Source: Deltaproteobacteria bacterium (GTDB lineage Bacteria; Myxococcota; Kuafuiibacteriia; Kuafuiibacteriales; Kuafuiibacteriaceae). Taken from it: a stretch of DNA of 64,000 nt. The notes beneath the pieces were generated by a model. It ran no database searches. It had not been told where the DNA came from and saw only the letters and a list, made by a program, of their open reading frames with translations. The position numbers were made by a program, and so were the translations under genes. Where the stretch lies: positions 64,001 through 128,000 of the forward strand of contig JAVJQW010000008.1 in the NCBI GenBank assembly GCA_040218735.1. Direction: 5' to 3'. This document shows positions 6,867 to 47,010 of the stretch, piece by piece; the first letter of the stretch is position 1, and every line of letters begins with the position of its first letter.

Positions 6867-6870
6867 TCTC

Positions 6871-8097
6871 ATGACGGTGTACGTGCTCGGCGGCTTCCAG
6901 ACGGACTTCGCCTTCAACTGGAGCAAAAACGACGAGGACCTGTGGGCCATCTTCGGCGCCACCGTGAACGGCGCGTTCGACGCGACGAGAATCGATCCGA
7001 AGGACGTCGACGTCGCGCACGTCGCGAACTTCTCGAGCGAGCTGTTCTGCGGGCAGAACCAGCTCGGCGGGTGGTTCGCTTCCGCGCACCCGGATCTCGC
7101 CGGGACGCCCGCCTCGCGCCACGAAGCCGCGTGTGCGTCGGGGAGCGTCGCGATGCTCGCGGCGTCGGCGGAGATCGAAGCCGGGCGCTACGACCTCGCG
7201 TGTGTGTTGGGCGTCGAGCAGATGCGCAACGTCCCGGGGCAGGAGGCAGCGAAGCACCTCGGCGTCTGCGCGTGGAACGGACGCGAGGGTGAAGGCGCGA
7301 CGTACTTGTGGCCGCACATGTTCAGCCGCCTCGCCGACGTCTACGCGGAGCGCCACGGCCTCGACCGCGAACACCTCGTGCACCTCGCGAAGAAGAACTT
7401 CGCGAACGCGCGCAGGAACGACAACGCCCAGACGCGGCGGTGGTCACTCGACGACGACAGCTTCGGCGTCGACGACCAGGCGAACCCGGTCATCGAAGGG
7501 AACGTGCGCCGCCATGACTGCAGCCAGATCACCGACGGCGGCGCCGCGGTGTTCCTGGCGTCCGAGCGGTACGCGAAGCGCTACGCCGAAACGCGGGGCG
7601 TGCAGCGCCTCGCCAAGCTCGCCGGCTTCGGCCACCGCACCGCGCCGATGCTCCTCGACGACAAACTCGCCGCCTCCGCCGGGCAGCCCTACGTGTTCGG
7701 CGAAGTGAAGCGCACGATCGACGACGCCCTCCGCCGCGCCGCGCTCCCCGACGCCTGGGCCCTCGACGCGGTCGAGTGTCACGACTGCTTCAGCATCAGC
7801 GAGTACATGGCGATCGATCACTTCGGCCTGTGCGACGCCGGCCGGCCGCACCAGGCGATCGAACGCGGCGACGTCGACCCCGGCGGCCGCCTCCCGTTCA
7901 ACCCGAGCGGCGGCCTCATCGGCGGCGGCCACCCGATCGGCGCCACCGGCGTCCGCATGGTCCTCGACGCCTTCCGCCAGGTCACCGACCAGGCCGGCGA
8001 CTACCAGGTCGACGGCGCGAAGCGCGTCGCCACGCTGAACATCGGTGGGAGCACGACCACCAGCGTGAGCTTCGTCGTCGAGCGCGCGACCGCATAG
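6871..8097 (+). CDS. Acetyl-CoA acetyltransferase / thiolase (SCP2-thiolase-like)
   Basis: EAACASG active Cys, ECHDCF, NPSGGLIGGGHPIGATG. Confidence 0.93.
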   Translation: MTVYVLGGFQTDFAFNWSKNDEDLWAIFGATVNGAFDATRIDPKDVDVAHVANFSSELFCGQNQLGGWFASAHPDLAGTPASRHEAACASGSVAMLAASAEIEAGRYDLACVLGVEQMRNVPGQEAAKHLGVCAWNGREGEGATYLWPHMFSRLADVYAERHGLDREHLVHLAKKNFANARRNDNAQTRRWSLDDDSFGVDDQANPVIEGNVRRHDCSQITDGGAAVFLASERYAKRYAETRGVQRLAKLAGFGHRTAPMLLDDKLAASAGQPYVFGEVKRTIDDALRRAALPDAWALDAVECHDCFSISEYMAIDHFGLCDAGRPHQAIERGDVDPGGRLPFNPSGGLIGGGHPIGATGVRMVLDAFRQVTDQAGDYQVDGAKRVATLNIGGSTTTSVSFVVERATA

Positions 8098-8219
8098 TGG
8101 GCCGAGTCATCGCCGCGCCTCAGCCGGCATCGGATCTATCCCCGAGGCGAGATCAATCAACTGCGAACGTGGACTTTATGGGTTTCAATGGGACGGCGAT
8201 GGGTTGGGTCAGGGTTAGG

Positions 8220-9685
8220 CCAAGTACCGTTCACTTGGCGGAAGGGCCTGCGTCGAGCATGCCGTGAGTCCGCGTAAGGCACCCCGAGACAGAGAGCGTC
8301 GCGCCGGGCGCCGCGGAGTGACTCGTCCCTAGGCCGCCATTTCGCCGGCTCGTAAGCGAGGGGGGGGCGCGGAACGCAGTCCGAAGGAGGGTCGCGCTCT
8401 CGAACCCCCTCTGGCATCGCTCTCACGTGCTGCCCTCCGGGCGTGGCCGTGGCGTCGGACGTACTTCACACTGCCCGGGCTGGGTGGAGCTGCGCTCATG
8501 AATCCTTCGCCCGATGAAGGCGCGACCCAACACCTCGTTCGCGGCATGAAGGTTGTGCGCGCGGCACAACAATCGCAGCTCGCCGACCACGCTCTTGGCC
8601 CCCAGCGCCCGCCCGCCGACATGATCGAATTCGAGGTTCGACCGTTCGCTGCATCGCCGCCCGTCCGGGCTCACGTAGGTGCATTGCGCGCCGTCGCGCT
8701 CCACCACCGCGCGGCGCGTTGCCGCTGGGACGTACGCTGCGCCCGCGGGTGCGTCGTCGGCAGGCGTCGATCGTGGACGACTCGTCTTTCCGTTCTTCCT
8801 CCTCTCCAGCTTCTCCACGTAGAGCGCGAGCGCCGCTTCGAAGATCTCCCCGATGTCCGTCCCAGGCGGGGTGAGCTCCTTGGCTCGATCCAAGAGCGCC
8901 TTGGCTTCGGCGCTCCCGTCGAAGCGAAAAGCGAACGTCTCGGCGGTCGCCGCCTCGACACGGTCTTCGCAGCTCTTCGCTCCCGTGAACTCGGTAGCGA
9001 TCAGCATCTCGACCTCGGCCTTGGACTTGTTCCGCGCCTGCTCGACGAGGCTGTGGGCGTTGTCGTCGTTCATGAACTTGGAGAGCTTCGCGACGCCCGT
9101 CATGTGCAGCTCGCCGGTCGCGATCAGCTCGAACACCTCGGGCACCCGCCGCGCCGCGCGCACCACGCCGACGCGCCGGCACGCCTGGTCCTCGGTCAGC
9201 CCGAGCCCCTCGACGCAGAACCGAAACAGCGAGCTGAAGCCGCGCTCCACGTAGAGCTTGCGCCGCTCGATGAACCGGAGCGCCTGGATACCGCTATTCA
9301 GCTCCTCGAAACGCGATTCGGCAGGCCTCGAGGAGGACCGTCTGAGACGTGCGAGGACGCACGCCATGGACCGTCAGCGTCCGGCGAAGAGTCCAAGCTC
9401 GAAAACTTCGAAACGGTCGGCGTTCGTCGAGCAGATGGCCCGGACAGGGCCGACAATTCCGTCAACCCCAAAAGAGAGAAAGAAACTTCTTCCGCAACTC
9501 AACTTGCGCGCCCGCCCATCCCCTCTTGCGAGCCGGCGAACCTCACCGGTCCATCGCAGCCCTCGACCGCCGTCGGCGCATCATCCGACGCTGATTCCAG
9601 TGGTCTCGTGAATGCGTCGAAGGTGGCGTGGGCTACTCGCGTGCGAGGCCGCGAAGATCCATCTGGGGATGGCCGTGCCGCGAGC
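8220..9685 (-). repeat. Copy 1 of a ~1.5-kb HNH-gene repeat element (direct repeat of 18780-20343)
   Basis: Homology starts at ccgttcactt(g/a)gcgga (8227 / 18786) and ends near ccgcgaaga(t/g)ccat..gccgtgc (~9685 / ~20343). Confidence 0.9.
8423..9305 (-). pseudogene. HNH endonuclease (DUF222-like family), 5'-truncated copy
   Basis: Nearly identical to 18973-19935, but the 100 bp (19889-19988) carrying the native start are missing and 9 bp are deleted (RFMAEIERR to RFIERR); an in-frame ATG at 9367 keeps an ORF open. Confidence 0.65.
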
Positions 9686-9744
9686 GCTACATGGGGAGCA
9701 TTCGAGTGCCGCCGACCATCGAGCGGAGCCGACCGCCGTCCTCC

Positions 9745-9799
9745 TCGACTGTGGCAACAGGTGCGACTGCATCGGCGACCACGGCTTGTACGACTTCAC
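9745..9799 (-). mobile_element. Possible remnant of an IS1182-family transposase N-terminus
   Basis: MKSYKPWSPMQSHLLPQS resembles the IS1182 start (MxxFxxYxPxQxxLLPPS); similarity stops right after. Confidence 0.3.
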
Positions 9800-10109
9800 G
9801 CTAGCACGAGATTACGATCGAGTACGCAGTGGGATAGGGCAACGTGAGTAGCGGAGCGCAGGCGGCGGGCGCGCCGGTTCCGAAAGCCGAGCCGCCCCGC
9901 CGAGCGCAACGTGCCTTGCCCATCGCGAACGCTGGGTCCCCGTGTCGATCGATGGCCAATCTCGCCGAACCGAGGTCGGCACGCCCGCCGCCGGGGCGGA
10001 GCGAGCGCCTGGGCAGCACGTCGCATCACCTCCGCGATGGCGCGAAGCTCCTTGGGTCACCCACCCCCATCGGATCGCCGAGCGAAGGCAACTCGACACG
10101 CGGAGCGCT

Positions 10110-10236
10110 GGCGGCGGACGGGGACGCTCTGGAGGGAATCAGTTCGGCTCGCCCGCCGCGGCCATAAGCGAAGCCGAGGGGCAACACCAGGCGAGACGAA
10201 CGGCATCTGACCGGAAGAGCGTCCCCGGCCGACGCC
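10110..10236. repeat. 21-bp imperfect inverted repeat enclosing further helices
   Basis: ggcggcggacggggacgctct (10110-10130) versus agagcgtccccggccgacgcc (10216-10236): 19/21 complementary, 12-bp perfect core. Confidence 0.75.
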
Positions 10237-10448
10237 AAACGCGAAGCCGGACCTGGGCACTCCCCGGCCGGCTATCCGATACACCCTCGTAGGCCATAAC
10301 GCCGCTCCGCTTCGCGGACCGCCTTAGCACAGCCTTCGGACCGGCCGCATTCGCGACCGGCCGCAGTCTAGGCCTGAACATCCAAGCTGTGCCGAAGATC
10401 TTCGTGGGTTGTTTCGCGGTTCGGCCGCCGACAATCTGCGACGCACCG

Positions 10449-13343
10449 ATGACCGTCGAGACCACCAGCCCGCTCGGCCAGCGCGTCGCCGAAGCCGTTC
10501 GCTCCGTCCGCACGCGCGCCGGCGACCCCACCGCGGCGGTCGTCGTCGTCACCCCGTCCGTCGGGAGCGCCGAGCTCGTCCGTCGCGCGCTCGCGCTCGC
10601 GGGCCCGTTCATCCGCGTGTCGTTCGCGCCCCCCGGTCGCATCGTGTCCGCGCTCGGGGAGCTCGCGCTCGCGGAGCGTGGCCTCACGCCCGAGCCGGCC
10701 GGCTGGCTCGGCGCCACGCTGCGCGAAGCGATCCGCGACGACGAGACGGGCCTCGACGCCCCGGGGTGGCTGCCGTCCCTCGAACAGGCGGTGCAGAAGC
10801 TCGACGCCGCGGGCCTCGACGCAGACCGACTCGCTACCGTGACGTGCGCGCCCGAGCTCGAAGGCCGCCGCGATCTGCTAGCGCGCCTCCTGGGCGCCGC
10901 CCACGAACGTCGCTCGCGTGAACGCCTCGCTGGCGCACGAACGATCGGAGATCTCGCGCTCGCGGCGGTCGAAGACCGGCGGCTCGCGTTCAACCGCAAC
11001 GTGGGCGCGGTGGTCATCGGCGATGCTTCGCTGACCCCGAGCCAGTACGAGGTCCTCACGGCGTGGCTCGCGGATCGCCCCGGCGTACGCCTCGCGCTCG
11101 CGCCGCTCGAACACATCGAACTGGCGCCGCAGGGCCTCCGACGCGCCGCGGCGCACCTCGAGGTCCTCGACGTCGACGTGGCGGGCGAGGGCGACGTCGC
11201 GCACCTGCAGCGTCACCTGTTCAAGGAGCCCACGACCGCTGCGCCGCACGACGGTCGCGTCGCGTTGGTCACGTCGCCGGACGAAGCACGGGAGATGCGC
11301 GAGGTCGTCCGCGAAGTGCAACGTGCGATCGCCGCGGGCACCCCCCTCGACCGCATCGCGATCGCGCTCCCCGACGGCAGCACCGCCGACCTCCTCGAAG
11401 AGCGCCTCGACGCGGCGGGCATACCGGCGGTGTGGCTCGTCGGCCCGAGCCTCGCGCGCGATCGCGCGGGGCGTCTGTTGAGGCAGGCGATTCGCCTCGC
11501 GTCCGGCGAGGACTCGGTCGCCGAGTGGTACGCGTTCCTGAGGCACCCGCTGCTCCGCATTGCGCCGCGCCTCGGCGCCGACGCGCTCCGTGGTGCGAGC
11601 CAGTGGCGGCGCGCGTTGGCCGAGTGCGGCGCCGTGCGCGGGACCGCGGCGATCCGTGGCGCGCTGCGCGCAGCGCTCGAGAGGATCGATCCCGAAGAGG
11701 ACGCCTGGCGCCACGCCGCGCACACCTCGCTCCTCGCTGTGATCGAAACCTTCGCCGACGCGTTCGCGGCGTTCCCGGAGCACGACACGCTCGGCGCCCA
11801 CGCGAAGACCTGGTCGGCGTTTGCGAAGACGTGGATCGGCCTCCCCAACGAACGTGCGCAGCTCGCCGACGTCCTCGACGCGTTTGGTGACGCGGGCCCC
11901 GCGATGGACGCCGCCGACGCATTGGGGTTCTTGGAGTCCGCGCTCGCCGCGAAGCCCCGGCTGGAAGGATTCATGACGCAGCCGGGCGTTCGGGTCGTGC
12001 CGCCGATGGAGCTGATCGGCGGTGAGCTCGACGTCGTCTGCCTCACCGGCCTCGTCGAAGGACGCTTCCCGCCGCGCCGTGACGAGGACCCGCTCCTGAC
12101 GGACGCGCTCATCGAGGCCATCGCCGCCTCGACCGACGTTCACCTCCTCACCTCGCGCGACCGCGCCGACCTCGAACGTCGTCGCCTCGCCGCCGCGATC
12201 GCGTCGTGCACCGGGCGGCTGTGGCTCTCGGCGCCGAGCACCGAGCTGATGAGCGCACGTCCGCAGCGACCGAGCCGGCTCCTCCTCGACGTCGTCGCGA
12301 CGCTCGAGGGCCGCCGCGCCTCGTACGCCGACCTGCGCGCCACGCAGCAGAAGGTCGGCTCCCGGGCGCAGTTCGGGCCCGAGGATCCGAAGGACGCGAT
12401 CGACGCGACGGAGCACTGGGTCGCGCGGGTGCAGAACGGCGAGGTGGAGGCGCTCGCGCGCCACGCGACGCCGCGCCGTTTGATGCAGCTGCACCGCTCC
12501 ATCGATCGCCACCGTCGCTCGGCCCACACCGACACGCCGTTCATCGACGCCTGGACCGGCCTGGTCTCGCCCGAGCTCGTGCTGGGGCCGGCGTCGGGGG
12601 ACATCGAGGCGCGTGTGCACGTGTTCGCGGAGGCCGCGCTGCAACCGGCGCGGTACTTCTTCCGCCGCCTGCTGCGCGCGTACCCGGCGCCGTCGCTCTA
12701 CCACGCGTACGACGCCACGAGCGCGTACGTCCTGAAGTCGCGGGCGCGAGCGGCGCTGCGCGCGGCGTTCGACCGCGCGGGCCCCGATCTCCTCGCGCGC
12801 TTCGCGGAGGTGTGGGCGGAGGAGGACGAGGCGCTCTTCGCGCACAAACCGGAGATCGACGCCGACACGATCGCGATGGCCGGCGACCTCGGCCGCGCGT
12901 TCGCGGAGACGATGCTCGCGGCGCGAGACGACTGGCTCGCGGCGGCGCCGCGTACGGTGCCGCCGAATGACTTCGACGGCTGGTCGGTCGCAGCGGACGA
13001 GGTGCTCGTCGCGGGGCCCACGCTCTTGGCGACGCGATCGAAGGCGGGCCGCAAGACACTCAAGATCGATGACGCGTTCGCAGCGATGCTCACGGCGGCC
13101 GCCCTCGAAGACGTGACCGACATCGTGCACGTCGATCCGGACGGCGGGGTGGGGACGGTGGAGGTCCGCGCGCTGAGCACGACGGTCGCGGAGCTCGCGC
13201 GGGTGACGCGTGAGCGCGCGGCGAAGGGGCTGTGGCCGATGGCGAAGGGCGACGACAAGTTTGCGTTGGCGCTCGAGCAGGTCTCGCCGGTGGACGCCAC
13301 CGACACGGCGGCGTTGGAGCGGATGTTGGAGGTGGTGGGATGA
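10449..13343 (+). CDS. AddB/RexB-like inactive helicase-nuclease subunit
   Basis: SPDEAREMREVVREV..GTPLDRIAIAL, VVCLTGLVEGRFPPRRDEDPLLTD, RLWLS..PSRLL; no Walker A; C-terminal nuclease motif degenerate. Confidence 0.75.
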   Translation: MTVETTSPLGQRVAEAVRSVRTRAGDPTAAVVVVTPSVGSAELVRRALALAGPFIRVSFAPPGRIVSALGELALAERGLTPEPAGWLGATLREAIRDDETGLDAPGWLPSLEQAVQKLDAAGLDADRLATVTCAPELEGRRDLLARLLGAAHERRSRERLAGARTIGDLALAAVEDRRLAFNRNVGAVVIGDASLTPSQYEVLTAWLADRPGVRLALAPLEHIELAPQGLRRAAAHLEVLDVDVAGEGDVAHLQRHLFKEPTTAAPHDGRVALVTSPDEAREMREVVREVQRAIAAGTPLDRIAIALPDGSTADLLEERLDAAGIPAVWLVGPSLARDRAGRLLRQAIRLASGEDSVAEWYAFLRHPLLRIAPRLGADALRGASQWRRALAECGAVRGTAAIRGALRAALERIDPEEDAWRHAAHTSLLAVIETFADAFAAFPEHDTLGAHAKTWSAFAKTWIGLPNERAQLADVLDAFGDAGPAMDAADALGFLESALAAKPRLEGFMTQPGVRVVPPMELIGGELDVVCLTGLVEGRFPPRRDEDPLLTDALIEAIAASTDVHLLTSRDRADLERRRLAAAIASCTGRLWLSAPSTELMSARPQRPSRLLLDVVATLEGRRASYADLRATQQKVGSRAQFGPEDPKDAIDATEHWVARVQNGEVEALARHATPRRLMQLHRSIDRHRRSAHTDTPFIDAWTGLVSPELVLGPASGDIEARVHVFAEAALQPARYFFRRLLRAYPAPSLYHAYDATSAYVLKSRARAALRAAFDRAGPDLLARFAEVWAEEDEALFAHKPEIDADTIAMAGDLGRAFAETMLAARDDWLAAAPRTVPPNDFDGWSVAADEVLVAGPTLLATRSKAGRKTLKIDDAFAAMLTAAALEDVTDIVHVDPDGGVGTVEVRALSTTVAELARVTRERAAKGLWPMAKGDDKFALALEQVSPVDATDTAALERMLEVVG

Positions 13344-16300
13344 CCGAGATCGTCGACATCGAAGTCCGCGAGCGCGTCGTCTCGGCGACCGACACGTCGA
13401 TGGCCCTCAACGCGGGCGCGGGCGCGGGCAAGACGACGGTGCTCGTCGACCGCGTGCTCGGGTTGCTCGCCGCCGGGACGGCGCCGGAGCGCATCGCGGT
13501 CATCACGTTCACGGAGAAGGCGGCCGGTGAGGTCGCGGAGCGCGTTCGCGACGCGTTGGAGTCGGCGCTCGCGAGCGCTCAGGGCGAGGCGCGCACGAAC
13601 CTCCAGGCGGCGGTGGAGCGGCTATCGGATCTCCAGACGTCGACGATTCACGCGTTTGCGTCGTCGCTGTTGAAGATGGAGGCGTACGAGTCGCGGTGGG
13701 CGCCGCGCACCGAGCTGATCGGCGAGACGCTCGGGACCTCTGCGGCGGACGACGCCTACCGCACCTGGCGGAAGGGCTACGACGAGCGGCACCCGGCGGA
13801 CATCGCGCCGCTCCGCGGAGCGTGTGCGGAGCAGACCCTCCGCGCCGGGGCGCTGGAGCTGGTGCGCTTCGCGGACCTGGAGCCCGTCGTCGGCCCGGAG
13901 GCGCTCGACTGGACGGAGGCACGCGCGACGCTGGCGGCGATTCACACGACGTTCGAGTCCCTGCGCGCCGAGTGCAACAAACCCGACACGTGCAAGCTCC
14001 TCGCGAACAACGCGGAGGGGCTCGCGCAGATCGCGGCGGCGCTCGCGGGTGAGGACGAGCGGCTGATCCCGGAGGCGGCGCGGGCGAAGTTCAAGAAGGT
14101 CGGCGGCAAGGCGGCGGATTGGAACGGCGACGCCTGCGCGGGCTTCAAGTCGAACATCGACGAGGTGAAGGCGTGGATCGATCGCTGGAAAGCGAACCTC
14201 TTCGCCCCGCTGCACCGGCGCGTCGTCCTCGATCTGTACGAACACTTCCTCCCGCTCGTCGCGACGCGAAAGCGCGCGCGGAGCCAGGCCGACTACGACG
14301 ATCTTCTGTTCGAGTGTCGTCGCCTCCTCGTGGAAAGGAGCGCGGCGCGGGCGCGGTTGGCGGAGCGCTTCGACGCGATCCTCGTTGACGAGGTGCAGGA
14401 CACCGACCCGGTGCAGGCGGAGATCGCGCTACTGCTGACGCGCGAGCCGGAGCTCGACGGTGCGTGGCACGAACACCCGCCGCGCCCCGGGCGACTGTTC
14501 GCGGTGGGTGACGCGAAGCAGTCGATCTACCGCTTCCGTCGTGCGGACGTTGCAACCTGGCATGCGCTCGGCGACGCCATCGCGAAGGACGGTGAGCGGG
14601 CGATGCTCACCCAGAACTTCCGGTCGGTGCCGGGCATCGTCGCGTTCTCGAACTTCGTGTTCAGCGGGCTGGAGGACTACGAAGCGATCACGCCGTACCG
14701 CGAGGCTGCGGAGCTCGATCCGGTGGTCGTGCTCCGCGCGGAGAAGGCGACGGAGACCCGCGCCGCCGTGCATCACGTGAGCGAGCTGCTGCGGTCCGAA
14801 GCGCAGGTGTTCGATCGTTCGATCGACGGGCTGCGTCCGCTTCGCCCTGGGGACGTGATGGTCGTGCTCCCGGCGTGGAGCCGCGCCGACGGGGTGTTGG
14901 CGGACTTCGCCACGGCCGGAATCCCGGCGGTCGTCGAGGGGGGCGCGACGTTGTTCTCGCGCGACGAGGTGCGGCTCGCGCTCTGTGCGCTGCGCGCGAT
15001 CGAGGAGCCGGGGGACAGTGAGGCGGTCGTGTTCCTGCTGCGCGGCATGTTCGGCACCTCCCACGAGCACCTCGCCAGGCACGTGGGGCAGGGCGGCACG
15101 TGGCGTTACACCCGCGAGGATCAGCCGACCGGGGTTGTCGCGGATGCGCTGCGGGTGCTCCGGGACGTGCACCGGGAGCGTCGTCGCCGGTCGTTGTCGG
15201 CGCTGCTCGATCTGCTGCTGGAGCGCACGCGCGCTGCGGGGGTGTGGCGGCTGTCTTCGCGGGGCGTATCGATGCTCGCGAACCTCGACAAGGTGAAGGA
15301 GCTGGTGCGTCAGCTCGAGGAGACTACGACGACGTCCGCGGAGGTGGTGTCGGCGTTGCTCGGCGCGGACCGGAACGCGAAGCAAGAAGACTTGCCGGTC
15401 GCGGACCCGGACATCGACGCCGTGCGCATCACGTCGCTGTTCAAGGCGAAGGGGCGCGAGGCGCCGGTGGTGGTGATGGCGCACGCGGACCGCCGCAAGG
15501 ACGACGCGCGCGCGATCGTGGATCGCGACGGTGGTCGGGTCGCGATCAAGTTCCGGGACTTGAAACCGCCGGACTTCGACGTGTGGGCGGAGCGCGAGGA
15601 CGCGGAGACGAGGGACGAACGTCGCCGCTGGATGTACGTCGCGGCGACGCGTGCGTGTGACCAGCTGGTGATATGTCGCTCCGACAAGTCGGGGCTCTTG
15701 GACGCGGACCTGTCGAAGGCGCTGGCGGCGACGGCCGACGCGGAGCACGACGCGCTCGTGGAGGTCGGCGACGGCGTTCAGATCCGCGTGCGGGATCTCG
15801 AAGCGATCCCCGAGCCGCCGCGGAGCGACGAGACGTTCCCGGGGCACGACGACGCGATCGACGCGTTGCTCGATGCGCCCCCCACCGCGGGTGACGCCGT
15901 GGAGCCCGCGTGGCAAGCGGAGCGCGCGGCGGCGACGAAGCGCGCGGAGCGTTCGTCGCTGCGGTGGCGGACCGTTTCCGAGGAGGTGAGCCGCGTGCGC
16001 GGTCGGGACCCCGCGGGGCTCGGCGGCGGTGTCGGGTTGCTCGGTGGGAAGGTCGTGCACCGGGTGATGGAGCACCTCGATCTCGCGGAGCCCGCGGCGG
16101 TCGCGATGGAGAACGTGCCTTCGCTGGTGGAGCTGTACGCCCGCATCGTGGGTTTGCCGGCCGAGGACGCGCCCAAGTGTGTGGCGGTCGTGGCGTCGCT
16201 CTTGGAGCACGAGGTCGTGGAGCAGGCGCGCGCGGCGCCGGAGCGGTGGCAGGAGGCGGAGTTCACGTTCAGGAAGCGCGGGCGGATCATCTCGGGGACG

Positions 16301-16837
16301 ATCGATCTGTGTTTCCCGACGGACGCGACGCGCAAGCGTTGGGTCGTGGCCGACTGGAAGTCGGACCTCCCCGCGGTCGGCTCGCCGGCGCGGTTGCGCT
16401 ACGAGCACCAGGTGAAGCTGTACGCGGAGGCGCTGATCGCGAACTTGGTGGACCACCCGATCGAGGTGGACGCGGTCCTGGTCGGTCCGCACGCGGGGCT
16501 CGACGTGGACCTGCGCGAGCGTGCGCTGCGCACGGTGCACCCGGCGTTGGCTTCGGGGCTCGCGGCGTTGCTCGACGCCGGGGCGCCGGTGCCGGCGGTC
16601 GGGATGGACGTCGGCGTGAACGAGACGGTCGGCGAGCTGGAGCTGTGCTGGGAGGACCTGCAAGTTGGCTTGCTCTTGGACCGTGACCACGAGGAACGCG
16701 CGGCGATTGCGGCGGAGGGCTTCGCGCTCGTCGAGGGTTCGTCGGAGGTCTCGGGCTGGGCGGACGCGGCGATCGCGGCGTTGGCGGCGCGGTTGGGGGT
16801 GACGTTGCCGGCGACCGAAGAGGACGAGCCCGCGTGA
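13340..16837 (+). CDS. AddA-like UvrD helicase / PD-(D/E)XK nuclease with extra C-terminal domain
   Basis: AGAGAGKT, ITFTEKAA, STIHAF, DEVQD, VGDAKQSIYRFRRAD, NFRS, KGRE, YVAATRA; nuclease GTIDL..ADWKS..QVKLY; ATGA overlap with the upstream gene. Confidence 0.9.
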   Translation: MTEIVDIEVRERVVSATDTSMALNAGAGAGKTTVLVDRVLGLLAAGTAPERIAVITFTEKAAGEVAERVRDALESALASAQGEARTNLQAAVERLSDLQTSTIHAFASSLLKMEAYESRWAPRTELIGETLGTSAADDAYRTWRKGYDERHPADIAPLRGACAEQTLRAGALELVRFADLEPVVGPEALDWTEARATLAAIHTTFESLRAECNKPDTCKLLANNAEGLAQIAAALAGEDERLIPEAARAKFKKVGGKAADWNGDACAGFKSNIDEVKAWIDRWKANLFAPLHRRVVLDLYEHFLPLVATRKRARSQADYDDLLFECRRLLVERSAARARLAERFDAILVDEVQDTDPVQAEIALLLTREPELDGAWHEHPPRPGRLFAVGDAKQSIYRFRRADVATWHALGDAIAKDGERAMLTQNFRSVPGIVAFSNFVFSGLEDYEAITPYREAAELDPVVVLRAEKATETRAAVHHVSELLRSEAQVFDRSIDGLRPLRPGDVMVVLPAWSRADGVLADFATAGIPAVVEGGATLFSRDEVRLALCALRAIEEPGDSEAVVFLLRGMFGTSHEHLARHVGQGGTWRYTREDQPTGVVADALRVLRDVHRERRRRSLSALLDLLLERTRAAGVWRLSSRGVSMLANLDKVKELVRQLEETTTTSAEVVSALLGADRNAKQEDLPVADPDIDAVRITSLFKAKGREAPVVVMAHADRRKDDARAIVDRDGGRVAIKFRDLKPPDFDVWAEREDAETRDERRRWMYVAATRACDQLVICRSDKSGLLDADLSKALAATADAEHDALVEVGDGVQIRVRDLEAIPEPPRSDETFPGHDDAIDALLDAPPTAGDAVEPAWQAERAAATKRAERSSLRWRTVSEEVSRVRGRDPAGLGGGVGLLGGKVVHRVMEHLDLAEPAAVAMENVPSLVELYARIVGLPAEDAPKCVAVVASLLEHEVVEQARAAPERWQEAEFTFRKRGRIISGTIDLCFPTDATRKRWVVADWKSDLPAVGSPARLRYEHQVKLYAEALIANLVDHPIEVDAVLVGPHAGLDVDLRERALRTVHPALASGLAALLDAGAPVPAVGMDVGVNETVGELELCWEDLQVGLLLDRDHEERAAIAAEGFALVEGSSEVSGWADAAIAALAARLGVTLPATEEDEPA

Positions 16838-18777
16838 GCCCGCTGCAGATCGCGTTTGCGCAGACGTTCATGCGTTCGATGGACCGGCTGACCGCGAAGG
16901 AGTCGGCGGCGGTGATGGAGGCGGTGCGCAAGTATCAGAAGGGCCACGGCTCGACGCATCTGCACCAGCTCGCTTCGGTCCCCTACAAGGGCTTGGCGGT
17001 GAGTCAGGGGGCGTTGCGGATCGTGTGTCGGCAGGACGGTGGGACGCTCCTGCTCCTGCACGCGGACCATCATGACGCGGCGTACGCGTGGGCGGAGCGG
17101 CACCGCGTGGTTCGGGTCGGCGACACCGTTCGTATCTTGCCCACGGAGATTGCGACGGCGTCGACGGAGGACGCGACGTCGTCGGTGCGAGGGCCGCTGA
17201 CGGACGTGCCGGACAAGACGTTTCGGCACTTCGAGGTAGGGCCGCTGGCGGCGGCGTTGTTCCGGACGGTGCCGACGGAGGACGCGTTGTTGGACGTCGC
17301 CGCGTCGTTGAAGCCGGCGCTCGGGGAAGCGTTGATCTCGCTGGGCGCGGATCCGGATCGCCTGGATGAGATCGTGTTGGCGTTTCAGTCGGCGCCGGTG
17401 GGTTCCCAGCGGCCGCTGTCGGAGGTGATCGCGGCGCCGCAGAACTCGGACGTTTTCTACGTGGCGCCGGGAGAGCGCGAGCTGGAGCTCGCGCTGTCGG
17501 GTGACTTCGCAGCGTGGCGGTTGTTCCTGCACCCGTCGCAGCGGCGCATCGTGGAGCGCGACACCCGCGGCGCGGCGATGGTGAAAGGCGGGCCGGGGAC
17601 GGGGAAGACGGTGGTGGCGCTGCACCGGGCGCGCCACTTGGCGTCGAAGGTGTTCGCGGACGACGGTCGCCCGGTTTTAGTGACGACGTTCAGCCGGGTG
17701 TTGGGGCAGCAGGTCGCGGCCGACTTCTCCGCGTTGTGCGGTGGTGAGGTGCTGCCGGTCGAGGTGGCGTCGCTGCACGCGGTCGCGGTCGCGGTGTTGG
17801 ATCGCGGTTCGCTGCCGCGCACCTTGGTGACGGGTGAGGTGCTCGACGCGTGCTGGGAGGATGCGCTGGCGCTCGACGTCGCGGGGCGCGGTCGTCGCTT
17901 CTACGAAGAGGAGCGCGAGCAGGTCTTGGCGGAGCAGGGCGTGTGGACGGAGGCGGCGTACCTGCGGGTGACACGGAAGGGTCGCAAAGGGCGCCTGGAT
18001 CGCGCGGCGAAGTTGGACGTGTGGCGGGTGCTCGCGGCGTTCGAGGCGGCGCTGTCGGCGCGCGGTGGTGGTGACACGATCAAGCTGGTGCGCGACGCGC
18101 GCGAGGCGGTCGAGTCCGGGCGGGTGCCTTCGCCGTACGCGGCGGTGGTGTGTGACGAGGTGCAGGACGTCGGCCCGGTGGAGCTTCGTTTCCTGGCGGC
18201 GCTGGCGCGCGAGGGCGACGCGGTGGGGCCAAACCGCTTGTTCCTGGTGGGTGATGACAACCAACGTATCTACCGGCGCCGGACGAGCTTCGCGAAGTGC
18301 GGGATCGACATCGTGGGGCGCTCTTCGCGACTTCGTTTGAACTACCGAACGACGGAGGGGATCCGGTCGGCGGCGCTCGCGGCGTTGGCGGGTGCGGATG
18401 TGGATCTCGCGTCGGGCGAGCGCTCACTGCGCGGCGGCCCGCCGCCGTCGTCACGCCGACTGGGGGCGACGGAGGAGATCGACTTCATCGCCGAGCAGGC
18501 CTTGGACGACGCGCTGGTGCTGGTCGTCGCGCGGACCAACGGTCGCCTCGACGAGGTGTCGAAGGCGCTGGCGGACCGGGGCACGGCGCACGTGCGGCTT
18601 GGGCGTGAAGACGTGGCGCCCGCGGTGGGACTCGTGCTGTGTACGATCCATCGCTCGAAGGGCCTGGAGGCCGAGGGTGTCGTGGTGCTCGACGCGGAGA
18701 AGGTGCAGGACCCGAGGCTGTCGTACGTGGCGATGACGCGGGCGCGGGACTGGTGTGTGTTGGTGGATCGCGCCTAG
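16834..18777 (+). CDS. SF1 UvrD-like helicase with N-terminal RelE/ParE-like domain
   Basis: FLHPSQR, GGPGTGKT, DEVQD, VGDDNQRIY, LNYRTT, TIHRSKGLE, YVAMTRA; N-terminus ..RIV..LLLHADHHDAAYAWA; GTGA overlap. Confidence 0.85.
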   Translation: MSPLQIAFAQTFMRSMDRLTAKESAAVMEAVRKYQKGHGSTHLHQLASVPYKGLAVSQGALRIVCRQDGGTLLLLHADHHDAAYAWAERHRVVRVGDTVRILPTEIATASTEDATSSVRGPLTDVPDKTFRHFEVGPLAAALFRTVPTEDALLDVAASLKPALGEALISLGADPDRLDEIVLAFQSAPVGSQRPLSEVIAAPQNSDVFYVAPGERELELALSGDFAAWRLFLHPSQRRIVERDTRGAAMVKGGPGTGKTVVALHRARHLASKVFADDGRPVLVTTFSRVLGQQVAADFSALCGGEVLPVEVASLHAVAVAVLDRGSLPRTLVTGEVLDACWEDALALDVAGRGRRFYEEEREQVLAEQGVWTEAAYLRVTRKGRKGRLDRAAKLDVWRVLAAFEAALSARGGGDTIKLVRDAREAVESGRVPSPYAAVVCDEVQDVGPVELRFLAALAREGDAVGPNRLFLVGDDNQRIYRRRTSFAKCGIDIVGRSSRLRLNYRTTEGIRSAALAALAGADVDLASGERSLRGGPPPSSRRLGATEEIDFIAEQALDDALVLVVARTNGRLDEVSKALADRGTAHVRLGREDVAPAVGLVLCTIHRSKGLEAEGVVVLDAEKVQDPRLSYVAMTRARDWCVLVDRA

Positions 18778-18779
18778 TC

Positions 18780-20343
18780 CCAATGCCGTTCACTTAGCGG
18801 ACGGGCCCGCCTCGAGCTCCATCAGGCGGAGAGGGGCGCCTCGACGTAGGGCAGCGCGCCGGCGCCGCGGAGCGTCGCGTCCCTCGTCCGCCGTTTCGCC
18901 GGGCTGGTGAAGGAGGGGGGCCGCGGAGCGCGGTGCTCCGAAGGAGGGCCGCGACACCGGCTGCTATCGCTCTCACGAGCTGCCCTCCGCGCGTGCCGGT
19001 GGCGTCGGATGCCCTCCACGCCGCGGGCGCTCGTGACACACGTCCTGCCTGGGCTGGGTGGAGCGGCGCTCGTGAATCCTCCGAGCGATGAGGGCGCGAC
19101 CCAACACTTCGTTCGCGGCGTGAAGGTTGTGCGCCCGGCACAACAAGCGCATCTCCCGGACCACGCTCTTGGCGCCCAGCGCGCGGCCGCCCACGTGATC
19201 GAATTCGAGGTTCGACCGTTCGCTGCATCGCCGACCGTCCGGGCTCACGTACGTGCACTGCGCGCCATCGCGCGCGACCACCGCGCGGCGCGTTGCCGCC
19301 GGGACGTACGCTGCGCCCGCGGGTGCGTCCTCGGCGGGCTTCGACCGCGGACGACTCGTCTTTCCGTTCTTCCTCCTCTCCAGCTTCTCCACGTAGAGCG
19401 CGAGCGCCGCTTCGAAGATCTCCCCGATGTCGGTCCCAGGCGGGGTGAGCTCCTTGGCTCGATCCAAGAGCGCCTTCGCTTCGGCGCTCCCGTCGAAGCG
19501 AAAAGCGAACGTCTCCGCGGTCGCCGCCTCGACGCGGTCGTCACTGCTCTTCGCGCCTGGGAACTCGGTCGCGATCAGCATCTCGACCTCGGCCTTGGAT
19601 TTGTTTCGCGCCTGCTCGACGAGGCTGTGGGCGTTGTCGTCGTTCATGAACTTCGAGAGCTTCGCTACGCCCGTCATGTGCAGCTCACCGGTCGCGATCA
19701 TCTGGAAGACCTCGGGCACCCGCCGCGCCGCGCGCACCACGGCGACGCGCCGGCACGCCTGGTCCTCGGTCAGCCCGAGCCCCTCGACGCAGAACCGGAA
19801 CAGCGAGCTGAAGCCGCGCTCGATGTAGAGCTTGCGCCGCTCGATCTCCGCCATGAACCGGAGCGCCTGTACACCGCTATTCAGCTCCGCGCGAAGCGCT
19901 TCACGAAGTCCGCTCCGGAGATTGGTTTGGGTCATGCAAGACAGGTTGCAAGCTTTCGGGCTCATGCAGCGAAGGTATCATCGAGCCCTCGAAGCGCGAT
20001 TCGGCACGACTCGAGGATGGCGGTCTCAGACGTGCGAGGACGAGCGCCATGGACCGTCAGCGTCCGGCGATGCGTCCAAGCTCGAAAAACTTCGAAACGG
20101 ACTGCGTTCGTCAAGGAGATGGCCTGGACACGGCCTTCGATTCCGTCAACCCCTGCAACTCAACTTGCGCGACCGGCCAATTCCCGCTTACCAGCCGGCG
20201 AACCTCACACATCCATCGCAGCCCGGACCGTCGCCGGCGCGACTTGCGGCGCCTCTTCCGGCGGTTTTCGCGAAACGCGTCGAAGGCGCCGTGGTCGCTC
20301 GCGTGCCACGCCGCGAAGAGCCATGAAGCCGTGCTCCGAACGC
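18780..20343 (-). repeat. Copy 2 of the ~1.5-kb HNH-gene repeat element
   Basis: Aligns with 8220-9685 across coding and non-coding parts; begins about 3 bp after the helicase stop. Confidence 0.9.
18973..19935 (-). CDS. HNH endonuclease (DUF222-like, myxobacterial multicopy type)
   Basis: RKLYIERGFSSLFRFCVEGLGL; C-terminal RRAVVARDGAQCTYVSPDGRRC..LEFDH..LLCRAHN. Confidence 0.85.
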   Translation of the reverse strand: MTQTNLRSGLREALRAELNSGVQALRFMAEIERRKLYIERGFSSLFRFCVEGLGLTEDQACRRVAVVRAARRVPEVFQMIATGELHMTGVAKLSKFMNDDNAHSLVEQARNKSKAEVEMLIATEFPGAKSSDDRVEAATAETFAFRFDGSAEAKALLDRAKELTPPGTDIGEIFEAALALYVEKLERRKNGKTSRPRSKPAEDAPAGAAYVPAATRRAVVARDGAQCTYVSPDGRRCSERSNLEFDHVGGRALGAKSVVREMRLLCRAHNLHAANEVLGRALIARRIHERRSTQPRQDVCHERPRRGGHPTPPARAEGSS

Positions 20344-20360
20344 CCGAGCGGCGGCTTTCC

Positions 20361-20650
20361 GATTCACGAGCGCCGCTCCAACCAGCGAGGTGTACCCGCG
20401 AGCACAACCTTCACGTAGCCCGCGAGTTGGTGGGCCGCGCCCTCATCGATAAGCGGATTCACGAGCGCCGCTCTACCCAGCGCGCCCGTGTGAAGAACAT
20501 CCACCGCAGCGCTTGGAGGGCAGCGCGTGTCGCTGCGAGGCCCCCTGTTCACTCGTCGGCGAAGCGCTCACCGAGGCCGAGTCGCTCAGCGCCGCCAGCG
20601 CGGTGCGCTTCCGCGAGGAGCCCTACGCGGCCTCATCAGCCGCTCGATGT
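20361..20650 (+). pseudogene. Inverted remnant of the HNH element 3' end plus its trailer
   Basis: Encodes CTREHNLHVARELVGRALIDKRIHERRSTQ (compare CRAHNLHAANEVLGRALIARRIHERRSTQ); 20530-20650 aligns with the reverse complement of ~18810-18935. Confidence 0.8.
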
Positions 20651-20707
20651 CGAAGAGGGCAAAGGTAAAGGGCAAGTTCAAGTTCAAACGGCCCGACCTC
20701 GTCGCCG

Positions 20708-21295
20708 TTAGAGCACGAAGACGAGGACGTACATCGCCACCCACACCACGCCGACGAAGTGCCAGTAGACCGCCCAGAGGCGGACGCGGAGGTGGCGGGG
20801 GGCGGTGTAGCGGCCCTGGTAGGCGAAGACCGTGAGCACCGCGAGGGCGACGACGCCGAGCACGACGTGCAGGGCGTGGATGCCGGAGAGGCCGTAGAGG
20901 ACGGCGGCGTAGGCGCCGCGGTGGATGTCGAGGCCGGCGGCTTGGAGATCGACGCCAACGATATACTGAATGGCGACGAACACGATCCCCAGCGCCGTGG
21001 TCAGGGCCAACACGTGCGCGAGCAGCTTCGGCTGGCCCTGGCGCACCGCGCGTAGGCCGTACTCGAACGTGAAGGACGAGGCGAGCATGACGGCCGTGTT
21101 GAGCGTCGGGAGCGTGAGCTCGGGGAGGGGGAGGCCGATCGGCGGCCACTCGGGTGCGTTGAAGCGGACGGCGCCGTAGACGAGGAAGATGCTGACGAAC
21201 ATCATCGCCCACGACGCGATGAAGATGACCATGCCGAGGTAGGCCGTCTTCTTCTCTTCCGCGTACGGGGACGGGTAGCTGACGACGTCGCCCAT
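20708..21295 (-). CDS. ctaE: Heme-copper oxidase subunit III (second copy)
   Basis: GMVIFIASWAMMF, LNTAVMLASS, GIHALHV, YWHFVGVVW. Confidence 0.9.
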   Translation of the reverse strand: MGDVVSYPSPYAEEKKTAYLGMVIFIASWAMMFVSIFLVYGAVRFNAPEWPPIGLPLPELTLPTLNTAVMLASSFTFEYGLRAVRQGQPKLLAHVLALTTALGIVFVAIQYIVGVDLQAAGLDIHRGAYAAVLYGLSGIHALHVVLGVVALAVLTVFAYQGRYTAPRHLRVRLWAVYWHFVGVVWVAMYVLVFVL

Positions 21296-21336
21296 CGCCC
21301 TTTTCAGTCGGCGGTCCGACCCGCCGAGTCAACCGT

Positions 21337-21951
21337 TCAGGCGCCGAGGTCGGCCACGACCAAGGGGTGCAGCTGCGCGTGGGCGGCGTCCACGCGGCGG
21401 TTGTACTCGGTTGCGCCGAGGGCGCGGTCGTCGAGGATTCGCCGGATGCGCATCGGCCCGTAGCAGTAGGCCGCGACGGCGTGGGCGATGTCGCCGTCGA
21501 AGCGGCCGCGGAGCCAGGCGAGGTATTCGATCCCGATGAGGACGTTGTGCACGGGGTGTTCGAGCGTTCGCGGTCCGCGCCACCGGACGCCGGCGCGACG
21601 CGCGAAACTCTCGGCCGTGTTCGGGAGGAGCTGCATCAGGCCGATCGCGCCGACGGAGCTCTTCGCTTTGGTGCGGAAGCGGCTCTCGGTGGTGATCATC
21701 GCCAGCACCAACGCGGGGTCGATGCCGTGTCGCGCGGACTGGCTGTCGATCGCCTGCGCGACGCGTTCGCGCGTGACGGGGTGCCAGTAGGGCGCGCGCG
21801 CTTCGAGGACCTCGAGGATCGCGGCTTCGGGGTCGGGGTCCGCGATCGAGGTCGCGCGCGCGGCGTTCTTCAGCGCTTGCGCCACCTCGGATTCGTCGAA
21901 CGCGATGGGCTGGGTCGTCGCCACGAGCGTGAGCGTGATCGCACCGAGCAT
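21337..21951 (-). CDS. Lytic transglycosylase (SLT domain)
   Basis: IDPALVLAMITTESRF..SSVGAIGLMQL..AAYCYG; start uncertain (could extend to 22062). Confidence 0.88.
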   Translation of the reverse strand: MLGAITLTLVATTQPIAFDESEVAQALKNAARATSIADPDPEAAILEVLEARAPYWHPVTRERVAQAIDSQSARHGIDPALVLAMITTESRFRTKAKSSVGAIGLMQLLPNTAESFARRAGVRWRGPRTLEHPVHNVLIGIEYLAWLRGRFDGDIAHAVAAYCYGPMRIRRILDDRALGATEYNRRVDAAHAQLHPLVVADLGA

Positions 21952-46670: not shown

Positions 46671-46689
46671 GTGATCGATTCCCTGTGTC

Positions 46690-47010
46690 TCAGCGTCCCG
46701 CGCCCGGGACGATTCCGCCGCGCAGCTCGTGTTGGTCACTCGTCGCGCGACCCGTACCGTCGACGCGCAAGCGACCATTGATGTTGTGGCTCGGGCTCGA
46801 CGCGCGCCCCGTCGCGGGCGCCAAGTTCACGCTCCGCAGGACGCGCCCGAGGGGCCCGCCGTCGCGATCCATCCCCGCGTCGGGGACGCCGCCGTCGCGG
46901 TCCCTCCCCGCGTCGACGAAGCCAGCGTCGCGCGGGTCGCGCGGCGGCTCTTCGGGGTTGGCGCAAGCCGTGGCAAGGACGATGCCGAAGCTCAGGACGA
47001 GGCGGCGCAC
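46690..47010 (-). CDS. Small lipoprotein upstream of the collagen fibre
   Basis: LATAC lipobox; DAG linker; two short S-x-x-H/beta repeats. Confidence 0.7.

Follow-up and report, generated by a model that had tools for sequence, protein, structure and literature searches.

RecBCD and AddAB are repair enzymes that break down phage DNA as a side effect of that work. The AddB subunit of AddAB carries an active nuclease and a 4Fe-4S cluster, and in the mycobacterial enzyme AdnAB both subunits have motor and nuclease motifs. Here we analyze an operon of three genes, designated g1, g2, and g3 (coordinates in Table 1), in which an AddAB-like pair is joined to a helicase of the kind found in the phage defense system ARMADA type II, and which we cautiously propose as a candidate defense system. 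The operon lies in a 64,000-nt stretch of DNA (positions 64,001 to 128,000 of contig JAVJQW010000008.1, hereafter "the window") of an 11.6-Mb genome of ~70% G+C (G000), and the nearest protein relatives of the window's genes carry Myxococcota labels.

According to its article text, the description of ARMADA type II in Escherichia coli NCTC 12900, ATCC 8739, and EDL933 (PMC12458937) places ArmA (a BrxHII-like helicase), ArmB (a PglX-like methyltransferase), and ArmC (a YprA-like DEAD/DUF1998 helicase-nuclease) in strict order upstream of ArmD, a GajB/UvrD-like superfamily 1 (SF1) helicase. In that account the system (armABCD) gave E. coli protection from 13 of the 80 phages, and loss of any one of the four genes, or the substitution K266A in the Walker A motif of ArmD, abolished protection; the text of a preprint (10.1101/2025.09.22.677730) reports that a different strain depended less on armD. 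A comparable helicase, CnuH of the type II and III-A CoCoNuT McrBC systems, is described in the text of PMC10542128 as UPF1-like, with a RelE/colicin D-like "RNase toxin-like" domain fused between an OB fold and the SF1 helicase. GajB of Gabija is likewise a UvrD-like defense helicase.

A RecC-like scaffold, a motor-nuclease, and an ArmD-like helicase in one operon

The three genes have coding-type G+C content at third codon positions (GC3, 0.88–0.90). In the DNA, the TGA stop codon of g1 (13341–13343) overlaps the ATG start of g2 (13340–13342) as ATGA, and the TGA of g2 (16835–16837) overlaps the GTG start of g3 (16834–16836) as GTGA, which argues that the genes are translationally coupled. 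Both overlaps had been read in an earlier note on this DNA and are confirmed by the open reading frames (ORFs) and the letters themselves; its domain assignments for g1, g2, and g3 also proved correct in Pfam searches and in fold comparisons of g1 and of the N-terminal domain ("head") of g3. An in-frame GTG at 10389, upstream of the ATG at 10449, is an alternative start for g1. The resulting anatomy, a RecC-like scaffold followed by a RecB/AddA-like motor-nuclease and an ArmD-like helicase, is settled.

No family in Pfam (PDDEXK_1 included), NCBIfam, or PADLOC matched g1. Over residues 236–679 it is 27% identical to the AddB-like protein of the same genome (E 8e-15), and its AlphaFold model, made with a 36-sequence alignment (predicted local distance difference test, pLDDT, 92.7; predicted template modeling score, pTM, 0.87), has the helicase-like N-terminal domains and the C-terminal PD-(D/E)xK-fold domain that characterize AddB. 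Foldseek placed Bacillus subtilis AddB first (4cej_B, 3u4q_B; E 7.5e-25 to 5e-24, TMq 0.66–0.70), E. coli RecC second (E 4e-18 to 1e-17, TMq 0.61–0.62), and AdnA third (E 1.8e-16). The catalytic motifs are missing. There is no Walker A, the P-loop site reading P-S-x-x-N-G in the family consensus with no GK[ST]; between residues 700 and 964 no aspartate, glutamate, lysine, or histidine column is conserved in at least 29 of the 36 sequences, save one acidic column at 943, and the C-terminal strands are highly variable across the alignment. The only cysteines of the window's g1 are at residues 133, 393, 531, and 587, with none beyond 587, and none of the 36 sequences has a cysteine before the conserved P733 of "QPARYFF"; the C-terminal domain has no cysteine column in these sequences, hence the four iron-sulfur (Fe-S) cysteines of AddB are absent. 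Having neither Walker A, conserved nuclease residues, nor Fe-S cysteines, g1 resembles RecC: it is predicted from alignment and model to be an AddB-fold protein whose motor and nuclease are both dead and which carries no Fe-S cluster, and thus catalytically inert. The earlier description of g1 as AddB-like with none of these motifs is borne out by the fold match and the 36-sequence alignment.

The second gene has the order of domains that characterizes AddA, a UvrD-type SF1A motor and then a RecB-family nuclease, catalytic motifs included (Pfam UvrD-helicase 1.3e-48, UvrD_C 2.6e-14, PDDEXK_1 5.1e-07). The nuclease retains H..E, IDL, D-W-K, and Q...Y, which we take to be the RecB-type motifs. 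When 12 family members were aligned with the canonical AddA of the genome, these motifs, the DExQD box, and motif III were kept in all 12, and Walker A was present in 11 (in L147, methionine replaces the lysine). Matches to curated models were partial: 203.4 bits for NCBIfam addA_Gpos (cut-off 707.65), 173.6 for addA_alphas (cut-off 860.75), and 178 for recB (cut-off 696), such that the NCBIfam AddAB equivalog cut-offs were reached by neither g1, which had no match, nor g2. The earlier note had described g2 as an intact UvrD helicase with a RecB-type nuclease, which it is, plus an "extra domain," which proved to be a tail of ~110 residues with no Pfam match at E up to 5. The tail is present in some homologues and missing in others, and Atlas offers for it only weak leads, to DUF559-type domains (scores 0.75–0.76, under the 0.9 mark).

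In the protein encoded by the third gene, a helical linker connects a RelE-fold head to a UvrD-type SF1 core. Pfam scans of the head alone, the linker alone, and likewise the C-terminus of g1 alone returned nothing useful at E up to 5. The model of the head (pLDDT 91.7, pTM 0.84) was matched by RelE, YoeB, YafQ, HigB, or ParE-type toxins in 35 of the 35 Foldseek matches listed from the PDB (best E 1.5e-05; TM 0.64–0.73, target-normalized), and in a profile comparison with the PDB the top five were YoeB, RelE, and HigB-type chains (E 0.03–0.05). Model and fold matches thus establish as real the RelE/ParE-like N-terminus that had been suspected earlier. Across the first ~110 residues of 28 family members translated from DNA, R62, H80, D81, A83, and W86 are invariant, and in the profile alignment R62 and H80 correspond to the arginine and C-terminal histidine of YoeB, which together with its acidic residue are presumably catalytic in mRNA cleavage. 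At that acidic position the wider ArmD family has glutamate and the g3 proteins linked to a g1–g2 pair have histidine or glutamine; the heads of the latter also have a shorter loop. Regarding an antitoxin, no small coding-type ORF was flagged between g1, g2, and g3 among separate ORFs, and g3 starts inside the stop codon of g2.

In the helicase core, G257, K258, and T259 of Walker A and D441, E442, Q444, and D445 of the DExQD box are invariant in 31 sequences. Aligned with ArmD of E. coli ATCC 8739, g3 is 30% identical over residues 5–619 (E 7e-72) and collinear, and its K258 corresponds to the Walker A lysine K266 of ArmD as given in the text of PMC12458937; so far as that text describes it, ArmD has the same architecture end to end. 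With this collinear alignment and its head fold, g3 has the features of an ArmD subunit of ARMADA type II. We reached ArmD through the record named in PMC12458937; a blastn search with an Enterobacterales ArmD-like gene into E. coli genomes gave no match. A RecD-like role was considered for g3 and set aside, as it scores 22.1 bits against the recD model (cut-off 310.15) and its family matches are UvrD/helicase IV-type models, not RecD.

Compared with described enzymes, the operon shares the B-then-A gene order of AddAB (B. subtilis; PDB 4cej, 3u4q), the best whole-length fold match of g1, and g2 shares the domain order of AddA; it differs in the missing catalytic residues, C-terminal-domain cysteines, and Walker A of g1 and in having a third gene. 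With RecBCD (E. coli; PDB 1w36) it has in common a RecB-like motor and nuclease (g2), a RecC-like dead scaffold (g1), and a third helicase, and g1-g2-g3 repeats the recC-recB-recD order of scaffold, nuclease-helicase, and helicase. However, g1 does not match the RecC family PF04257, unlike the true RecC of the genome, and g3 is a UvrD/helicase IV-like SF1A-type enzyme whereas RecD is SF1B, so a RecD-like 5'-3' role should not be assumed. AdnAB (PDB 6ppj), a heterodimer of two UvrD-like/RecB-nuclease subunits, contributes the lower-ranked match AdnA, but g1 has neither the motor nor the nuclease motifs of its subunits. PADLOC models of GajB match g2 and g3 partially, in a way that is generic for UvrD cores; GajB has no RelE head, unlike g3, and the OLD-family ATPase-nuclease GajA was not found among the operon's neighbors. 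The likeness to CnuH is one of description (a RelE-like domain, an SF1 helicase, and McrBC nearby, as given in the text of PMC10542128), and the placement of the domain differs. Because ArmA, ArmB, and ArmC are absent beside g3, where an AddAB-like pair stands instead, the operon is not ARMADA although g3 is ArmD-like. It is a new combination of known kinds: we found no literature on an ArmD-like helicase coupled to an AddAB-like pair in the article texts, to which the supplementary tables of PMC12458937 may add ArmD-like genes elsewhere.

Distribution and linkage of the three genes

A full HMMER scan of 1.84 billion representatives with the g1 profile returned 779 proteins at an E threshold of 0.001; tightening it to 1e-30 left 89, mostly of 950–1000 aa. 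A word-indexed protein search found only 6 full-length relatives; set against these, the 89 representatives make the g1 family rare but not tiny. Within the phylum, 78 of 401 sampled genomes match the profile at E up to 1e-20. Strong matches covering most or all of the model (E 8e-83 or lower) occur in six of the 401 (G000, G001, G002, G019, G130, and G132), and the other 72 have partial matches, mostly in frames of AddB-like length (~1050–1200 aa).

Scanning contigs with a 12-sequence g1 alignment yielded 18 loci, which were examined by tblastn. Adjacent g1 and g2 genes with intact frames were found in 16 loci, namely the window, G001, G019, and 13 of the 18 surveyed. A g3 gene adjoins the pair in nine of the 16, following g2 in six surveyed loci (L145, L146, L147, L151, L153, and L157); it is absent despite 5.9–6.8 kb of sequence past g2 in L148 (Plesiocystis pacifica SIR-1), L152, L155, L159, and L161. 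Among the remaining surveyed loci, the sequence runs out directly behind g2 in two and inside or directly behind g1 in four, and one, the contig of G002, has no g2. The order is g1-g2-g3 in G001, a member of the same genus, and g3-g1-g2 in G019, and a database protein of 1699 aa (P0149) joins a g3-like part (residues ~1–660, 34% identity, E 1e-65) to a g1-like part (residues 749–1633). The linkage of g3 in relatives, on which the earlier note had made its reading depend, therefore stands, through nine loci, a rearranged order, and a fusion; obligatory linkage does not, given the loci that lack g3.

Some of these loci have features of their own. The lone g1-family gene of G002 (contig C38, 1327–8100; L114/L158), with neither g2 nor g3, is neighbored by genes for a subtilase (Peptidase_S8) and an Eco57I-type methylase on the opposite strand. 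In the head of P0149, Ala-Asp-Glu-Ala is aligned at the family motif H-H-D-A. L159, a contig of 67% G+C with a g1–g2 pair, is filed under a Klebsiella pneumoniae metagenome-assembled genome label; its composition suggests a mis-binned contig.

The third position is also variable in kind. In L155 (9895–14271, on a Gaiellales-labeled contig) a gene of 1458 aa overlaps the end of g2 in the place of g3; it matches the PADLOC TmtA (Tiamat) models (E 3.6e-66) and no Pfam family. In L147 the order is g1-g2-g3-McrB-McrC (McrBC region 10043–12992), and in L151 an HsdM gene follows g3.

Could the operon be a decaying addAB duplicate, its B subunit stripped of active sites and serving no present function? 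The losses in g1 and the scores of g2, far under the cut-offs of the curated addA and recB models, would suit such an origin. Yet the family counts 89 conserved, full-length representatives, g1 is modeled with high confidence, reading frames are intact in 16 loci with the g2 motifs conserved, and a strain ~98% identical in DNA retains the whole operon; we therefore disfavor this explanation as very improbable. That strain is represented by an 8525-nt contig of another sample (run X2), which spans 10336–18850 with 160 differing letters and ends on either side at the border of a flanking repeat (see below). A protein cluster 99% identical to g3 is also on record, its longest contig again 8525 nt. 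Judging from the X2 contig, this cluster, and the catalytic motifs of g2, the operon appears to be maintained under selection.

Relatives of g3 at 46% identity or more occur among the 401 genomes only in G000, G001, G019, and G130, all four of which hold g1; nine further genomes have relatives at 33–38% identity. In a maximum-likelihood tree of 92 ArmD-like proteins (LG+G4, with Shimodaira-Hasegawa-like approximate likelihood ratio test, SH-aLRT, support), nine of the ten pair-linked g3 proteins form one clade (SH-aLRT 100) on a long stem (0.69), separate from ARMADA ArmD: the E. coli protein and the entries with a giant upstream helicase lie outside it. The tenth, from L146, falls within the ARMADA-type branch beside an enterobacterial sequence, suggesting that a g1–g2 pair recruited an ArmD-like gene a second time. 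In the linked loci, g3 and the pair co-diverge.

The wider g3 family (28–35% identity) extends over many phyla, and none of the 80 loci examined has a g1-like neighbor. In 39 of 77 wider-family loci a protein of ~2100 aa with DEAD, Helicase_C, and MZB (DUF1998) domains is encoded directly upstream on the same strand; in L012 (Acinetobacter sp. P8-3-8), the only one scanned with PADLOC, this giant helicase is called DruE (2e-106) and is preceded by a type IIG/DrmMI-like methyltransferase. The earlier note had placed RelE-headed UvrD helicases beside methylases and DEAD/DUF1998 helicases; this is correct, and such a helicase is the ArmD of ARMADA type II. In five actinobacterial loci (L050, L063, L076, L078, and L080) the ArmD-like gene comes right after McrB (AAA_5) and McrC, without a DruE/ArmC-like helicase, and in L012 (12224–15917) the ArmD-like gene comes first, with McrB-McrC right behind it. 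ArmD-like genes adjoining McrBC may represent another type of ArmD-containing system.

The genome of the window holds other enzymes for DNA ends. The earlier note had raised the question of a separate canonical addAB or recBCD, and both are present (Table 1). The AddB-like protein on contig C61 (1090 aa) has a PDDEXK_1 domain (3.3e-34) and a Cas4-type signature. On contig C59, RecC (PF04257, 174 bits) and RecD (341 bits) score above their cut-offs and the RecB-like protein covers the whole model at 558 bits, below the curated cut-off of 696. Given this separate AddAB-like pair and recC-recB-recD cluster, the window operon is a third, accessory set; its unrelated neighborhood in the congener G001, where no gene flanking g1–g3 is shared with the window, also supports this status.

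Flanking repeats and surroundings of the operon

On one flank of the operon the next genes encode an HNH-like protein, a thiolase, and an amidase; on the opposite flank they encode a second HNH-like protein, COX3, and SLT. The two HNH-like genes belong to direct copies of a ~1.25-kb repeat and encode proteins of 314–330 aa that are 84% identical; their HNH reading rests on a C-terminal Cys/His motif, and they match no Pfam family. The genome has around 20 copies that align over 800 nt or more at 84–90% identity, with many fragments at contig ends, and the repeat is probably the cause of much of the assembly's fragmentation.

These repeats raise the prospect that the operon is cargo of a mobile cassette and serves the element (in maintenance, recombination, or countering host nucleases) and not the host. 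Two direct copies, ~10.6 kb apart, bracket exactly the three genes; with only ~20 long copies in 11.6 Mb, two so close together are unlikely by chance on a rough estimate; and synteny with G001 stops right after the thiolase gene (~8088). However, no integrase, transposase, or conjugation gene was seen within 10 kb on either side, and the candidate joints of an empty site (8256 to 18819 and 7470 to 18819) were rejected as too weak, their sides comprising 23–29 letters at 90% likeness. The thiolase of G001 lies on a 3.5-kb contig, and the sequence after it matches nothing in positions 6500–21500 of the window. A search of three loci from relatives (L112–L114) did not turn up the HNH-like gene, so the operon does not generally travel with the repeat and these flanks are specific to this genome; the loci at hand already suggest three genes with neither repeat nor mobility gene at their borders. 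We consider such a cassette improbable as an explanation of the operon. The earlier note had taken the "HNH repeats" as a sign of an accessory island: the repeats are real, as two direct copies of a dispersed element, but they are not a general feature of the system, and their bracketing may point, in this genome alone, to a site that is plastic or to a composite cassette.

Other features of the window were recorded in passing. Just downstream of the second copy, a piece of the HNH element is inverted (an 86-nt inverted repeat, 19053–19138/20396–20481, 81% complementary). An ORF of 1031 aa on the reverse strand (43683–46778) coincides with a stretch of ~81% G+C in which repeats with periods of 9, 18, 27, and 36 nt abound, as would fit a collagen-like Gly-X-Y repeat protein. 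Between 28000 and 32000, G+C drops to 0.64–0.66 from ~0.69–0.72 around it, and G+C at first codon positions is unusually low in several reverse-strand genes, so the region may also have been acquired.

Table 1. Positions of the operon, its domains, the flanking repeats, and the other end-processing genes of genome G000 (window coordinates unless a contig is given).
Feature	Position	Strand	Description
g1	10449–13343 (frame from 10389)	+	964 aa from ATG 10449; AddB/RecC-fold subunit
g1 C-terminal nuclease-like domain	12606–13340, ~residues 720–964	+	model strands 833–862, 891–905
g2	13340–16837 (frame from 13232, 1201 aa)	+	1165 aa from ATG 13340; AddA/RecB-type SF1A helicase and RecB-family nuclease
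g2 PD-(D/E)xK (RecB-type) nuclease	16046–16486	+	PDDEXK_1 at residues 939–1085 of the 1201-aa frame
g2 C-terminal extension	16499–16834, ~110 aa	+	fold unassigned
g3	16834–18777	+	647 aa, GTG start; ArmD-like helicase
g3 N-terminal RelE/YoeB/ParE-fold domain	16834–17142, residues 1 to ~103	+	model and Foldseek
g3 UvrD-type helicase core	17530–18768, residues 233–645	+	UvrD-helicase 1.2e-15, UvrD_C_2 1.4e-10
Repeat copy A	8307–9562, gene 8423–9367	-	direct repeat of copy B; HNH-like gene
Repeat copy B	18861–20224, gene 18973–19965	-	direct repeat of copy A; HNH-like gene
AddB/AddA-type pair	contig C61, 342887–349569		1090-aa AddB-like, then 1137-aa AddA-type
recC-recB-recD cluster	contig C59, ~40.9–52.6 kb		one strand, within ~12 kb

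Candidate role in defense

Translational coupling, linkage kept through rearrangement, fusion, co-occurrence, and the dedicated g3 clade make it probable that g1, g2, and g3 act as one system. A complex prediction for full-length g3 with residues 615–964 of g1 returned no answer (score 0.00) and is uninformative either way. On balance, if with little more than even confidence, we favor an accessory, horizontally mobile helicase-nuclease system that is a candidate for defense against phages or other foreign DNA, because its distribution is patchy and accessory beside two ordinary end-processing systems, because the tested member of the g3 family is needed for phage defense, and because the third position can be swapped (the TmtA-like gene) or adjoined by McrBC. 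The earlier note had named outcomes that would speak against its own proposal, among them these genes being the only syntenic addAB orthologs with g3 unlinked in relatives and a g3 head without a RelE fold; of those that could be examined, none was observed.

Several points weigh against a defensive role. Most neighbors of the 16 loci are ordinary (kinases, thiolase, cytochrome oxidase, hydantoinase, and glycosyltransferases), and by raw count clear defense genes adjoin only three loci (L147, L151, and L155), in addition to the methylase at the lone g1 of G002. In PADLOC, g2 and g3 match nothing beyond generic UvrD/GajB-type models, and g1 has no match. The third gene is not obligatory: it is missing beside the pair in five of the 14 loci with enough sequence, and the pair can stand alone in the manner of a repair enzyme. 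The fusion P0149 is a single database entry, seen as protein sequence only. RNase activity of the pair-linked g3 head is doubtful, since the glutamate aligned with that of YoeB is absent in this clade, and the ARMADA results may not carry over to a system without ArmA, ArmB, and ArmC. Finally, an AddAB-like enzyme with one dead nuclease is also workable for resection, as RecBC is.

Much of this would be expected of a third enzyme for double-strand-break resection or recombination of the cell's own DNA, used for instance under particular growth or developmental conditions, with g3 as an auxiliary helicase and no immune role. The pair has the architecture of AddAB/RecBC over its whole length, the dead second nuclease would suit resection, five loci hold the pair without g3 among mostly housekeeping genes, and large genomes of the phylum often keep paralogous repair sets, as the RecBCD and AddAB-like sets of this one illustrate. 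Against this explanation, the family occurs in only six of the 401 sampled genomes and has a different neighborhood in the congener; the family of its frequent partner g3 otherwise occurs in ARMADA/Druantia-like and McrBC loci; a TmtA-like gene replaces g3 in one locus; and the genome already has two full end-processing systems. We thus regard a purely repair-related role as unlikely, albeit the most serious of the competing explanations.

If the operon does act in defense, one scheme, which we put forward tentatively and hold to be rather doubtful in its specifics, would be end degradation. By analogy with AddAB and RecBCD, the g1–g2 heterodimer would load on free double-stranded DNA ends, the single motor of g2 unwinding and its single nuclease cutting, with g1 in the part that RecC plays for RecB, a scaffold that guides the strands. 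By analogy with ARMADA type II, g3 would join them as an accessory powered by ATP, either to sense or process the DNA substrate or to license the nuclease. The earlier proposal that the system senses phage DNA ends, or phage inhibitors of AddAB and RecBCD, and triggers abortive infection is speculation.

A broader possibility, toward which we incline less than toward a defensive role as such, is that ArmD-type RelE-headed helicases are portable modules that can be coupled to three or more unrelated nuclease engines, among them YprA/ArmC, McrBC, and the AddAB-like pair, the operon being an undescribed immune class. An end-processing machine would have been duplicated and its second nuclease and Fe-S cluster discarded, in convergence with RecC; an ArmD-type sensor helicase would control the destruction of foreign DNA ends, and other third subunits, TmtA-like proteins among them, could take its place.

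Should the defensive reading hold, a dedicated, mobile copy tied to a helicase of a defense family would represent a repair machine turned into a stand-alone immune module. The operon would also offer a simpler, three-protein and methylase-free setting in which to learn the roles of ArmD and of its RelE-like head. The g1 family, a natural AddB predicted to have evolved to the condition of RecC, bears on the relationship between RecBCD and AddAB.

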